Counted from the stretch's first letter, positions 24,414 through 28,730 are shown. The stretch is DNA of 64,000 bases from a virus (IMGVR_UViG_3300037722_001090), one strand, 5' to 3'. Notes: generated from the sequence alone by a model not told the origin. Numbers and translations: made by a program.

Positions 24414-25382
24414 TTAATTTGCTAGCCAATCATTATAGCATTCGTTAGTTTCATCATTAAAACCTCCTCCTGCATATTCTTCCCCCAACACCATAAAATC
24501 GTGAGTATCAGGCGTGTCTTTTAGGCTCATTAAGAACCCAAGACTAGCAATCCCCCAGTCTGACTGAGAAACTGAATAGCCTTTTTTTATATATTTTTCA
24601 ATTCTAATAAATTGAGATCTTCGTACTGGTAAATTGATAAACTTAAATTGCTTCTTTCGAAGAGCACGGATAGCACCCTTAAGCATATAAACAAATTCGC
24701 CATCATAAGCTAAGCAGCAAGCACTAGCATCAAACTCACTTAAAACATGAGTAGCTTCAGCAAAACATTTACTTATAATCTGTACAAGAGTAAATGGAGC
24801 AGCAATTAATCTACACTCAGTTACATGACCCTTCGGGTTCACTTCCCACGCATTATTAGACTCGAATTCTTTAATGACAACATCTCTATCTTCTTCATTA
24901 GTAAAGAATAAATCAAAGTCATTTGTAGGATCAACCTCATTGTTAAACCAGCTCATAACTTTCCCACCAGCAACAATGAACTTAAATCCTCTTTCATGTA
25001 GATCATCAATAAGTGCAAACGTAGATTTAGATATTTCAGGATTAATACCAAACCTACGCTCAACGGTACTTCTTTTACTGCTCATAAAAATCATTTTATG
25101 TCTTAGGCATTTTGAAATAAAAGGCGTATATACATTAGCTAAAAACTCTGGTACATATTCTCTTTTTAGCTCCCCAATAGGACATGTAATCTTAGCATCT
25201 GAAAATACTAAATTTTTAAGTCCCTTAATTCTATTCCAGTCAAGAGAATACTCAATTTTCGGGGAAGTAGCTGACTGCATTTTTAATTTAGAATCTTTTA
25301 CATTTCTTATCGTTGCAAATGTGGCTACAGCAGTATTATCAGCATCATTCGCCATATCTAGTTCTGTAAAACTCCAAGACAT
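24414..25382 (-). CDS. nucleotidyltransferase (Pol beta superfamily, CCA/polyA polymerase-like head)
   Basis: VAGG...NDFDLFF, later FD...CCLAYDG; start moved to MSWSF. Confidence 0.7.
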   Translation of the reverse strand: MSWSFTELDMANDADNTAVATFATIRNVKDSKLKMQSATSPKIEYSLDWNRIKGLKNLVFSDAKITCPIGELKREYVPEFLANVYTPFISKCLRHKMIFMSSKRSTVERRFGINPEISKSTFALIDDLHERGFKFIVAGGKVMSWFNNEVDPTNDFDLFFTNEEDRDVVIKEFESNNAWEVNPKGHVTECRLIAAPFTLVQIISKCFAEATHVLSEFDASACCLAYDGEFVYMLKGAIRALRKKQFKFINLPVRRSQFIRIEKYIKKGYSVSQSDWGIASLGFLMSLKDTPDTHDFMVLGEEYAGGGFNDETNECYNDWLAN

Positions 25383-25469
25383 TATCGTTCCTTTGTGTAA
25401 AAAAAAGAGTGATGGCTTTCCTTCCGTACTAACCACCACTCAGTAACAAAAATTGTATAAATACAAGAC

Positions 25470-25870
25470 AAGCCCTAGGCTTTATGAATAGCATCCGCCG
25501 CTACTCTCTTGTAATTATACATATCGACTCTAAACTGGGCCCGCCAGGCATGTCCGCCTTAGGAGACCAGTCTTCTCGAGCTGCGTGCACATAGCGCTGC
25601 GTTAGAAACGCAGTGCGTTTTGCGCGAGCTCGCGATATCAAATTGCGATGCAATTTCGATTGTCGACCAGGTGTCATAGGTACCTTTAATAGATTTAAAG
25701 GCCTTCGTATTTCCGGGGCGTTTTCAAAACGCCACAGGATTCTCTATATCGATATACTATTGTATACCTTCATAGGGACTCGTGTTCCTATGATCCTGAC
25801 GATTTTAATACGAAGTTCTGAGAAACTTCGATATCCGCAGGATAGCTTTTATTAAAATCGTGTACAAATT
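25470..25870. repeat. polylinker-like array of restriction-site palindromes and short-loop hairpins
   Basis: 17 six-bp palindromes counted by hand in ~400 non-coding bp directly downstream of the RT. Confidence 0.8.
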
Positions 25871-25883
25871 ATCAGCAGTCGTA

Positions 25884-26657
25884 TCAACTGCCGCGCTTTG
25901 CATCACAAGTTTCCTTGTACTGCATAAGTTTATGATATTGATCCTTGTTAACACTTTTCAAATAAGAAATGTGACCCATTTCAACATCAGTAACTTTTCC
26001 ATTATAAATAGCAGCACGTAAGTTCTTACGTATTTTTCTATTTAAAGAGACTTTTTCATTCACAGTAATTCCAAGAACTTTCTGTGATTTATTCTTATAC
26101 ATATATTCTATTTTATTATCCCGAACATCAAATCCAAGTTCACGAAGTCTAGATCTTACAATGTTTATTAACTCACCAACATCAGGTTTTCCATACCCCG
26201 AAAGCGTAATATCATCCGCATATCTAGAGAAGTTTATCTGCATAGGCTCCAGCTTAACAAATAGTTCTTCATCAAAGTCTCGTAGTACAATATTAGATAT
26301 AACAGGACTACAAGGACTTCCTTGAACTAACTTACTATCAAGAGTTGCTATTTCCTTTTCATATTGATCAAGAAATGTAAGCATATGTGCTTTAATTGAA
26401 GGAAAAAACTCAGCAATATCAATGTTAAGAACCCAATCTTGACCTACATGAACACACGCAGCATCTGTAGTGCTTTTACCTTTAATGAATCCATGACAAA
26501 AATCACTCATCCATTCTTCATTAACTAAACGATTTCTCAATATTCTTTGATGATCTTTTAATTCTTCACACGGAGCATGTATAATTCTTCTTTTACCATT
26601 TTTCTTTTTGCGATAGAAAACACTATACAGTGCATTCTTATTGCTCATATCTAGCAT
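25884..26657 (-). CDS. retron-type reverse transcriptase (short, 257 aa)
   Basis: KKNGKRRIIHAP, HGFIKGKS, DAACVH (NAxxH-like), DIAEFFPSI, QGSPCSP, YADD, VLGITV (VTG-like). Confidence 0.9.
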   Translation of the reverse strand: MLDMSNKNALYSVFYRKKKNGKRRIIHAPCEELKDHQRILRNRLVNEEWMSDFCHGFIKGKSTTDAACVHVGQDWVLNIDIAEFFPSIKAHMLTFLDQYEKEIATLDSKLVQGSPCSPVISNIVLRDFDEELFVKLEPMQINFSRYADDITLSGYGKPDVGELINIVRSRLRELGFDVRDNKIEYMYKNKSQKVLGITVNEKVSLNRKIRKNLRAAIYNGKVTDVEMGHISYLKSVNKDQYHKLMQYKETCDAKRGS

Positions 26658-26681
26658 CGATTATCTTCCTATTTATAACTT

Positions 26682-26697
26682 GCGGCCCGAAGGCCGC
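26682..26697 (-). terminator. stem-loop with UUCG loop just upstream of the RT start
   Basis: GCGGCC-TTCG-GGCCGC on minus strand; no U tract. Confidence 0.5.
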
Positions 26698-26699
26698 TA

Positions 26700-27510
26700 G
26701 TGATATGTAAATAACATTGGAACAATGTTATGAGTGAAAGAAGTGAACCCAAAGGGTCAGACTTTTTGAGCGACTTCTTTCTGAAAATGGCTATCGAAAC
26801 AACAGCCCGAGATGCAGTTTTTTTTTAAAAAATGTATAAAGAGAGAGTAACCTCTCAAGATACTGACAAGTCAGAGACTCAAAAATTTCGACCTGTGGCG
26901 AGAAATACAATAAGCAAGCGTTTGTTTTTCTTGCCTGTGGTCGAAATAATTTGATGCTGAACTTGGGGTCAGAGACCTTGTTACAACTTATTTTATTTTT
27001 GATTCCTTGTGTTAACAAGGGGCAGTCCGATTTTTAGCTCGTTGAGCTTTTAATCGGCCTGTCATTTTGATCCTGAAAGGGCAAAATTTTCAAAGATAAA
27101 ACAAGTTCACAAGGGCTGAACCTACAGTCAGAGCAAACCTCGTATAACCCCTAGGACGCGTCAGTGTCCGCCGGGTTTGTCGAGCGTGTCGGTAGTTTGC
27201 TGAACTGTACGAGCGTAGCGGTTAAGCTACATAAAATAGGATAAGCGTATCGCCTATCAAAAGCTGTATAAAACCCTGCTCAAGCAAACAGGATATATAC
27301 TCAGGATTTAGGATTCTAAGAATCCTAAATACTATAACTGACTTTACTGAACAGTTTTATCGTCAGAGTAAAGTCAAATCTTCTTGTCTTTGCCGTACCA
27401 GCAAAGATTACTAACAGACAGGGAACATCCAATGTCAATATTTTTGGCTTTATAAGTATCAATTCCGGAAGGATTGGATAGATCATAAGATGTATTTGAC
27501 ATAACCACCA
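26700..27510. ncRNA. large nested multi-hairpin non-coding region upstream of RT (candidate RT template RNA)
   Basis: more than 12 hairpins and long-range pairs; no convincing ORF. Confidence 0.65.
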
Positions 27511-27534
27511 CTGTCATATTAGATTTTCTAAAAT

Positions 27535-27873
27535 TTAAGAATGTTTCCAGAGCTTAAATTTCTTAAAAAGCTTTCTGTCTTCTCCGTACACCGGTTCACT
27601 ACAAATAGCAGTATATCCCATTTCATAATCTGGTTCAAAGAACATATAGTTTGTTATATTATTACAATCCAAGTATTGCTTGGCTCGTAATAGTCCTTCT
27701 TCACTTTTCACAGTAAGTACTATTAGAAATGAAACCTCATCTGGTTTCGCTTTTAGGCGCTGTCCCATTTCAAACGCTGCATGAGCAGTCTGTACTAATT
27801 GCGCATGTGATGGTATATCTGTTCTTACAATGCAGTAAGTATATGGTTTCTATGTTGACATTTTATCACTCAT
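27535..27873 (-). CDS. Pth2-like peptidyl-tRNA hydrolase with in-frame TAG at codon 8
   Basis: GGAG RBS, MSDKMST*KPYTYCIVRTDIPSHAQLVQTAHAAFEMG...FFEPD...TAICSEP; TAG at 27850-27852. Confidence 0.75.
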
Positions 27874-28174
27874 AGATTTCTCTCCTCAACACTTTCAGAG
27901 CTACTTTAGATTCACTCATAATTTTATCAGTGATACTAGTTAATACTTCATCACTTGCAATATCCTTAAAGAAATGCTTTGGTAATGAAATATATGCAAT
28001 AGTTTCATATCTAGTTGTTGGAGCAAGACATTCTTTCCAGCTTTTCCCGCATAGTTCCTTGTAAATAAGGTGATGACCGAAAGACATATTATCTCTCTCG
28101 CTACTATTAATAGCATCACTCCATGCTTTCCGTACTTGAAGATATTCTTCTTTTGTTTCGAATTTGGTTTCCAT
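27866..28174 (-). CDS. hypothetical protein
   Basis: 102 aa, overlaps the start of the Pth2-like gene. Confidence 0.6.
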   Translation of the reverse strand: METKFETKEEYLQVRKAWSDAINSSERDNMSFGHHLIYKELCGKSWKECLAPTTRYETIAYISLPKHFFKDIASDEVLTSITDKIMSESKVALKVLRREIYE

Positions 28175-28251
28175 TGTTTCTGTCCTTTTATATTGAGAAT
28201 TGTTAGAGTCATATTTATTTTTTTTCTATCTATTATTTTCGACTATGTCAA

Positions 28252-28335
28252 TCAACAATGAACAGGAGGAGACCTGCTTCGAATCTACAATTGAGGGATT
28301 CCTCGCATAGGGTTTTCTTTAATCATCTTCTTCAT
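28252..28335 (-). CDS. leader peptide with in-frame TAG followed by RSPP
   Basis: AAGGAG RBS, MKKMIKENPMRGIPQL*IRSRSPPVHC(TGA); TAG at 28285-28287. Confidence 0.5.
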
Positions 28336-28421
28336 TTTATCTCCTTTCAGAGTGTAAATTAGTAAATGCAAGACCATAATTAGGTGTTCCGGACCACATG
28401 ATCTTTTTTACTAAACTATAA

Positions 28422-28499
28422 TGGTGCCCTGTACCGGATTTGAACCGGTGAATCTTCGGGTTTAGAATCCGAGGCCTTACCTGACTTGGCGAACAAGGC
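28422..28499 (-). tRNA. amber suppressor tRNA (anticodon CUA), Gln-like body
   Basis: acceptor GCCTTGT/ACAGGGC, loop TT-CTA-AA, TTCAAAT T loop, encoded CCA. Confidence 0.85.
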
Positions 28500-28502
28500 A
28501 TA

Positions 28503-28730
28503 TTGAGAGGGATTATTTAATAGCAGCAACCCATAGTACGTCGACTATGAGTTAGTTTTTGCTAGAAATCAAGAAATAATATAGGTCTTGACCAGCGCTT
28601 ACGACTTATTTGGTTACCTATTTCACAAACAAGAAGCGAGGACCACGTACACATACGGATAAGTTGGAAATCTTATCTAAAGGTTGCCTGCATCGTCATT
28701 AGAAGTAACTGCTATACTCGCCACTCTCAA
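28503..28730 (-). ncRNA. long Y-RNA-like element
   Basis: TTGAGAG/CTCTCAA and ATAGCAG/CTGCTAT stems with the TGGCG..TTACTTC motif shared with elements at 62-64 kb. Confidence 0.55.

Follow-up and report, generated by a model that had tools for sequence, protein, structure and literature searches.

The window analyzed here, that is, the whole stretch of 64,000 nucleotides from the viral contig IMGVR_UViG_3300037722_001090, comes from a large uncultured, lytic-type phage. Its minus strand encodes a minimal retron-type reverse transcriptase (RT), which is also found on contigs of up to 205 kb and is preceded by a gap of 877 nt (26658-27534; about 880 bases) devoid of called genes. The gap is bordered by the end of a 77-aa ORF at 27535 and by the start of the RT at 26657, both on the minus strand, and gene callers placed no gene between these two on any of the four independent contigs that carry the RT. 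A Pfam search with the three short ORFs of the gap recovered no match. The minus strand carries every called gene of the RT locus and also all 11 tRNA genes of the window. No RNA sequencing run was listed as containing the sequence. Contigs from four DNA runs are identical at the locus, with no variants and no joints, and a JGI contig (L012) is 99.6% identical to window positions 25224-28657, differing at 14 SNPs. Four of these (27467, 27306, 26990 and 26942) fall in the gap, three of them in predicted helices with a pair kept or created on at least one strand; the strand signals of the four are mixed.

Genes for an RNA ligase, a Thg1-like enzyme and a kinase lie around the RT, whose neighbors combine RNA-repair genes with a ubiquitin-like conjugation cassette and a Gad2-like nucleotidyltransferase. 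No known retron effector was recognized in this neighborhood; the gene next to the RT codes for the Gad2-like nucleotidyltransferase, which has no PADLOC match. The leader of that gene, after the TTTATACAATTTT motif, contains a hairpin with the loop GUUAGUA ... GAAAGC, which is shared by window 25385-25460 and L001 5045-5110 and terminates in a U run in both. A tRNA with a CUA anticodon (an amber suppressor, labeled Pyl by ARAGORN) lies near the RT locus both in the window (28422-28499) and in L007 (289-363).

By its sequence the RT belongs to the retron clade: the PADLOC models RT_III-A (2e-59), XIII (3e-57) and RT_II-A (1e-53) all recover it, the NCBIfam model retron_St85_RT aligns with 170 bits (under its curated cutoff of 235), and the nearest solved structure is the Ec86 RT (7V9U, E 1.5e-22), whose residues 49-311 align with 12-256 of the query. 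At 257 versus 320 aa, the phage enzyme is without some 40 residues of the Ec86 N-terminus. Across the family the catalytic motif YADD and every RT block are retained, and motif 7, aligned to VTG in Ec86, reads VLG in 14 of 14 members. Searches for relatives returned no blastn match to the RT locus among 50,697 phage records, only RTs less than 33% identical by tblastn against the same records, and a best identity of 39% among prokaryotes (one genome each of 185,579 species). A single-protein scan of IMG/VR with the RT recovered nothing, and a profile scan then added three relatives. The thirteen relatives recovered in all are 42-64% identical, all metagenomic and, where long contigs exist, phage-like and up to 400 kb in size.

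In these relatives (L001-L011, L013, L094 and L095) the RT is followed by the Gad2-like nucleotidyltransferase, by proteins of 65-70, about 110 and about 300 aa, and by Prok-E2_D, after which comes JAB or ThiF where the locus reaches that far. A TROVE/Ro60 gene lies directly beside the RT in five relatives. Gene-free gaps of unusual stability (z -7 to -14) flank the RT, upstream or downstream, in most relatives, and L094 has no gap beside its RT; nearby gaps with tRNA-like or Y-RNA-like elements have an ordinary stability (z about 0). The linkage of such structure to the RT, which the initial annotation had made a point to be checked in related phages, is thus borne out, the structured gaps with the elements described below adjoining the RT in most of them.

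The gap of the window resolves into three units in RT sense, A, B and C, separated by a hairpin followed by a TTTATACAWTTTT signal, and a further unit, D, follows the RT. The features, in RT direction, are:

27410-27530, minus: structured domain at the 5' end of unit A, from the stop of the upstream ORF to hairpin A, identified in the folds; wobble pairs specific to RT sense
27388-27406, minus: msr-type hairpin A, triloop GUA, apex UG-GUA-CG; RT sense favored (-10.0 versus -7.7 kcal/mol)
27338-27376, minus: junction module A, stem / C-UCU-GAC ... GUU-CA-G / stem; model R1 26.7 bits, E 1e-4
27260-27333, minus: boundary between units A and B, with hairpins 27303-27333 and 27274-27292 and a degenerate TTTATACA motif at 27260-27272
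27240-27258, minus: msr-type hairpin B, apex CG-AUA-CG, then a short U run; shape match
27133-27239, minus: msd-like domain 1, hairpin 27215-27230 and GC-rich stem-loop 27133-27207; plus strand favored by 6.1 to 8.7 kcal/mol
27107-27141, minus: junction module B1, UCUGAC 27132-27127 and GUUCA 27121-27117; model R1 14.5 bits, E 0.32
26974-27106, minus: msd-like domain 2, multibranch; plus strand favored by 10.4 to 13.7 kcal/mol
26957-26973, minus: junction module B2, UCUGAC-CCCAA-GUUCAG; regular-expression match, homologous to L003 1217-1240 by pairwise alignment
26885-26947, minus: msd-like domain 3, a long hairpin formed by inverted repeat I1 with 26-nt arms; plus strand favored by 6.3 to 7.6 kcal/mol
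26828-26875, minus: end of unit B, with UCUGAC-UU-GUCAG at 26875-26863, a terminator-like hairpin at 26843-26856 and an exact TTTATACATTTTT at 26828-26840
26789-26807, minus: msr-type hairpin C, nearest to the RT; shares 15 of its 19 bases with the msr hairpin of Ec86
26734-26770, minus: junction module C, capping the GAAAGAAGU/ACUUCUUUC stem (26736-26781); model R1 22.6 bits, E 0.0017
26712-26730 and 26682-26697, minus: two hairpins in the leader ahead of the RT start codon, the latter GC with a UUCG loop, identified in the folds
25884-26657, minus: minimal retron-type RT, 257 aa; Pfam RVT_1 1e-26
25460-25892, minus: unit D, downstream of the RT, with an msr-type hairpin, a palindrome-rich stretch and an exact TTTATACAATTTT at 25449-25461
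25874-25892, minus: msr-type hairpin of unit D, at the end of the RT ORF; shape match

The initial annotation had singled out 26700-27510 as an ornately structured region, and the gap indeed folds far beyond shuffled sequence on both strands, with z about -10 for RNA (-273.9 kcal/mol, z -9.9, on the minus strand and -283.9 kcal/mol, z -10.2, on the plus strand) and similarly large departures for DNA (-143.7 kcal/mol, z -13.2, minus; -145.6 kcal/mol, z -8.8, plus). All nine of the helices that it listed are present in the sequence and in the minimum-energy folds at the positions given, many of the loops are triloops as it had noted, and the gap is several-fold longer than the usual msr-msd, the Ec86 ncRNA measuring about 170 nt. 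Its claim that the antisense strand folds better holds, with RNA parameters, for the central 325 nt or so (26883-27207) and fails for the region as a whole, where the difference is 10 of about 280 kcal/mol. It has to be limited to the center because the domain-wise RNA energies favor the plus strand there (26883-26949 by 7.6, 26955-27112 by 13.7 and 27113-27207 by 6.1 kcal/mol) and the RT sense at both flanks (27272-27534 by 9.3 and 26658-26830 by 4.1 kcal/mol). When both strands are folded with DNA parameters, as the annotation had proposed, the strand differences do not exceed 2.3 kcal/mol and the central plus-strand advantage is nearly gone. The wobble pairs of the folds, which it had read as G.T on the plus strand, show the same partition: over the whole gap 21 are plus-specific and 22 minus-specific, the plus strand leading in the center (7 plus, 2 minus) and the minus strand elsewhere (5 plus, 18 minus; Fisher p 0.006). 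Palindromes of 6 bp of the restriction type are not enriched in this gap (12 versus 15.7 expected), and in the gap downstream of the RT (25440-25892) 6-bp palindromes are strongly enriched (17 versus 7.1 expected).

Each unit opens with a hairpin of a distinctive shape, namely 8 bp closed by a triloop with the apex YG-NNN-CG. The 64-kb window contains only four perfect matches to this shape, all in RT sense and all flanking the RT. The msr hairpin of Ec86, read from the E. coli chromosome, has the same shape, and a survey of 78 non-redundant distant RT loci found 24 shape matches in RT sense at 100-400 nt before the RT, the background at other positions being about 0.5 for each 100-nt bin; this enrichment was replicated at loci from bacterial and archaeal genomes (19 of 69). 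The 8-bp triloop hairpin is therefore a signature of the retron msr. A covariance model of the hairpin built solely from 18 canonical retrons (model R2) has its top match of the window at 26787-26809 on the minus strand (20.4 bits, E 0.006), which is hairpin C, folding at -9.9 kcal/mol in RT sense versus -3.3 on the other strand; hairpins A, B and D fit the shape and have no score with this canonical model. Hairpin B is ambiguous in its role because it was also flagged as terminator-like.

Model R2 also matches beside the RT in seven relatives (L001, L003, L005, L007, L008, L009 and L013). In L005, L008 and L009 the matching hairpin sits exactly at the end of the RT ORF, as that of unit D does, and the shape search adds L001, L003 and L013 to these; stop-codon hairpins of this kind lie at L001 4761-4779, L003 2290-2308, L005 4750-4768, L009 4733-4751 and L013 3752-3770. 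The stems vary among the phages while the apex and the U-G pair stay, and such pairs exist in RT sense only. A stretch of 1.4 kb without long ORFs on a further IMG/VR contig of 194 kb (L109 1591-2970) has six msr-type hairpins in RT sense, with a distant phage RT (308 aa, 32% identical) downstream, and hairpin arrays may be more widespread among large phages.

The second recurrent element, which we term the junction module, follows most msr-type hairpins after 12-47 nt or else follows a longer structured domain. It has the consensus C-UCU-GAC ... GUU-CA-G and consists of a C-G-closed stem, an internal loop UCU/CA, the pairs G-U, A-U and C-G, and a small variable hairpin. We collected 17 instances from the window and six relatives, all beside the RT and in RT sense, with the G after GUUCA present in 12 of the 17. 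The lower stem, which was no part of the search pattern that selected the instances, covaries (0.468 versus 0.189 in shuffles, with none of 500 as high, and at most 0.194 for slid partners). A model built from the relatives alone, without the window's own copies (model R1), recovers modules A and C at E 1e-4 and 1.7e-3, and its matches in the window are in RT sense only. Because their G-U pairs occur in the RT sense alone, the conserved hairpins and junction modules are taken to act as RT-sense RNA. In module B1 the UCUGAC can alternatively pair with an upstream GUUCAG at 27205-27200, giving an inverted version of the motif around the GC-rich stem-loop; this inverted pairing suggests a two-stranded structural motif and not a linear signal. 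A kink-turn reading of the UCU/CA loop was rejected, as its register clashes with the covarying pairs.

The module is confined to this family and is absent from relatives L005, L008, L010 and L011. In 853 kb of sequence surrounding 152 more distant RTs, model R1 had no match with an E of 0.1 or lower, its one marginal match being at E 0.7, and TCTGAC is not a general feature upstream of distant retron RTs. In IMG/VR, exact module variants in a first pattern returned only the L001 contig and two matches that look coding, and a looser pattern returned 33 loci, none with this RT. A prophage contig has TCTGAC-GCCCGGAGACCGG-GTTCA in RT sense (L149 2494-2527), 500 nt upstream of a distant retron-type RT, a sequence that does not reach E 1 with the module model.

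The units are delimited by a boundary motif, TTTATACA(A/T)TTTT, which has two exact copies in the window, at 26828-26840 and 25449-25461, besides the degenerate one at 27260-27272. It holds a good -10 hexamer (TACAAT or TACATT) directly after a terminator-like hairpin. In relatives the motif occurs beside the RT and before the Gad2-like gene, and the combination of hairpin and motif seen at the end of unit B adjoins the RT also in L001, L003, L007, L013 and L095. This arrangement suggests that the hairpin plus motif marks the end of one putative transcription unit and the start of the next. The initial annotation had taken the region for the template of one unusually long folded ssDNA, or for a new class of large ncRNA. 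The first idea retains its link to a retron-type RT, its ncRNA hallmarks and its central strand bias; it has to give up the single molecule of 800 nt, as the region splits into three units with their own msr-type hairpins and with terminator- and promoter-like signals between them. The second is not the best description, for although no Rfam family matches, the building blocks are retron-derived.

Retrons as a rule have a single msd in each ncRNA. Sought as a long-stem hairpin between the msr and the 3' end, a domain of this kind occurs three times in unit B and hardly at all in units A and C, where only 20-35 nt separate the hairpin from UCUGAC. The plus strands of the three msd-like domains begin with GTCAGAG (at 27127, 26968 and 26870 for domains 1, 2 and 3, respectively), a heptamer with four plus-strand copies inside a 500-nt stretch of the gap and, in the other 63 kb of the window, only two copies, both on the opposite strand. 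In domain 2 the L012 variant converts an A-C mismatch (26990/27102) to G-C; in domain 3, whose hairpin has a homologue in L003, its variant at 26942 keeps the pair on the plus strand only, as G-T. Across five phages the complement folds better in all nine structured domains located 5' of UCUGAC (mean -8.1 kcal/mol), whereas ten domains located only 3' of a module have no strand bias (sign test p 0.002, Mann-Whitney p 0.002). The motif UCUGAC is disfavored as a stop site of reverse transcription, since the biased domains are on its 5' side and not on its 3' side. Canonical msd controls have no strand bias (6 of 18 antisense-favored, mean +0.2); such a bias was therefore rejected as a feature of msd regions in general, and it is unvalidated as a marker for reverse transcription.

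The modular anatomy of the gap, the homology of its hairpins to the retron msr, their linkage to the RT, their common strand and the strand bias of the domains are observations. We propose, with a probability of about one half, that the gap is a tandem array of non-canonical, retron-derived ncRNA units with several candidate cDNA templates, and not one giant RNA. Retron RTs initiate at the end of the msd next to the a1/a2 stem (PMC8632793). The order in the Ec86 RNA, read from the E. coli genome, is a2, G, a stem-loop, the msr hairpin, an msd of about 90 nt, UCUGAC, G and a1, a layout shared by two related retrons of the E. coli type, L141 and L158, with GAC-G before a1. A search for an a1/a2 duplex with a G after a2 found no consistent inverted repeat in 19 units of the phage family and 11-14 bp plus the G in controls.

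Units A, B and C would be transcribed in the RT direction, unit C serving as the RT's own leader, and each would present the msr-type stem-loop first and then one or more copies of the family-specific junction. The long-range a1/a2 is missing, and a local hairpin with GUUCAG is present, a state that a circular permutation would explain: the junction would replace the long-range duplex by joining a1 and a2 through a loop, and the side carrying a2 and its G would have moved to the 3' end. On such a permutation the RNA 5' of each UCUGAC is the predicted template, and its complement is the strand predicted to need folding. The RT may then start cDNA at the junction, the putative priming site, and copy the RNA 5' of UCUGAC back towards the msr hairpin. 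Unit B would in this way yield three folded ssDNAs of about 80-145 nt, each starting with GTCAGAG, and units A and C would yield only 20-35 nt. In its fullest form the proposal is that of a phage-borne, circularly permuted retron with a hairpin junction, in which one minimal RT serves a tandem array and produces a set of folded ssDNAs during infection, with no effector and possibly with counter-defense decoys or scaffolds as products; this we hold only tentatively, as a possibility less probable than its negation. A counter-defense role, considering the Gad2-like, ubiquitin-like and RNA-repair neighbors, is a guess.

The same elements could be read as structured RNAs in RT sense with the RT or a neighboring protein as binding partner, as autoregulatory leaders, scaffolds or decoys, with no reverse transcription and with the msr-like hairpins as mere protein-binding sites. 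It speaks for such a role that the hairpins and modules are kept as RNA-sense structures, that a1/a2 is absent, that so little sequence separates hairpin and UCUGAC in units A and C, that some relatives have the hairpins and no module, and that the RT is truncated with VLG in motif 7. We nevertheless regard it as rather unlikely, given that the catalytic YADD and every RT block are conserved across the family, and that it leaves unexplained both the nine complement-favored domains 5' of UCUGAC and the retention of UCUGAC, the motif at the template end of Ec86. The strand preference itself, at 6-14 kcal/mol per domain with RNA parameters and hardly any with DNA parameters, together with a plus strand rich in G+T at 26920-27100, would also suit an antisense ncRNA made from the plus strand of the central 325 nt (26883-27207). 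This is improbable: between 25400 and 28600 there is no plus-strand terminator-like site and no promoter-like site pointing into the domain, the called genes of the RT locus and the 11 tRNA genes are all on the minus strand, RT-sense modules and hairpins frame the domains, and four other phages show the same bias 5' of their RT-sense UCUGAC.

It is also conceivable that the structure operates at the level of DNA, as a replication origin or a packaging or recombination site with hairpins in single-stranded or supercoiled phage DNA, seeing that both strands fold about equally overall, that perfect palindromic hairpins are numerous and that the GC skew changes sign at the gap. The skew change, however, coincides with the lack of coding sequence, and the gap has no iterons or tandem repeats. 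As the conserved elements also have strand-specific G-U pairs and covary as RNA, and the element type shifts between upstream and downstream of the RT in relatives with the RT sense maintained, we consider a DNA-level element very improbable. We give hardly any credence to a role unrelated to the RT, in which the gap would encode Y-RNA-like partners of a phage Ro60 or a known ornate RNA such as GOLLD, ROOL, HEARO or OLE. The TROVE/Ro60 gene that adjoins the RT in relatives, and sub-threshold YrlA matches of 33-40 bits in L003 (707-770 and 848-910) and L007 (1622-1746), lend themselves to that reading. The L007 matches, however, are just upstream of the TROVE gene and the L003 matches upstream of the RT units, that is, in other gaps than the RT-flanking units, and such Y-RNA and tRNA gaps have the ordinary stability noted above. 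The Rfam search that the initial annotation had called for found no known ncRNA in the gap, the best score being 24 bits against a threshold of 128. In the window, tRNAs alone reach the gathering scores; when E values of up to 10 are admitted, the gap and the loci of eight relatives return only tRNAs and the weak YrlA matches in other gaps, and YrlA has no match in 26300-27900 at E up to 10.

Retrons are bacterial anti-phage systems of one ncRNA, one RT and one effector, in which the a1/a2 duplex has been thought indispensable for priming. Here an RT resembling that of Ec86 but stripped down, and with no recognized effector, is carried by a family of large uncultured phages and surrounded by several retron-derived RNA units without the priming duplex. 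If cDNA is made from the proposed array, it would represent a second way to build a retron priming site, the first multi-template retron and a use of reverse-transcribed DNA on the side of the phage, and it would offer compact, hairpin-closed priming junctions for the production of ssDNA in cells. If none is made, the units remain a conserved, RT-linked RNA family in need of an explanation.

A literature search found no description of tandem units, arrays or a hairpin junction for retrons. Phage-borne retron-like RTs as such are already on record, as a viral clade whose role is not known, in a metagenomic survey that does not appear to describe the associated RNAs (PMC13681634). In size range, phage setting and a neighborhood of tRNA, Ro60 and RNA-repair genes the gap resembles GOLLD, ROOL and YrlA, from which it differs in matching no Rfam family and in being modular with internal terminator- and promoter-like signals. 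DRT2 and DRT9, of the UG/Abi class, likewise combine an RT with an upstream structured ncRNA that programs an unusual cDNA; they belong to another RT lineage, the Drt2 model scoring 41 bits on the phage RT where its cutoff is 390. The best PADLOC scores for the RT are those of retron types III-A and XIII (2e-59 and 3e-57), but these models align to the RT core only and the accessory genes of those types were not found at the locus.

The closest parallel is Ec86 (Retron-Eco1, type II-A), whose RT is the nearest relative of solved structure and whose ncRNA is similarly encoded upstream of the RT on the same strand. The order of msr hairpin, structured template, UCUGAC and stem is common to both, the Ec86 template likewise ending in UCUGAC, and the msr hairpins have the same shape, with hairpin C sharing the 15 of 19 bases given above. 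Unlike Ec86, the phage RT has 257 instead of 320 aa, VLG in place of VTG and no recognized effector adjoining it. Its units have a local hairpin and GUUCAG after UCUGAC instead of a long-range a1/a2 or an a2-G. We know of no precedent for several junctions per msr hairpin, as found in one of these units, and where Ec86 has a single unit the phage has three upstream of its RT and one downstream.
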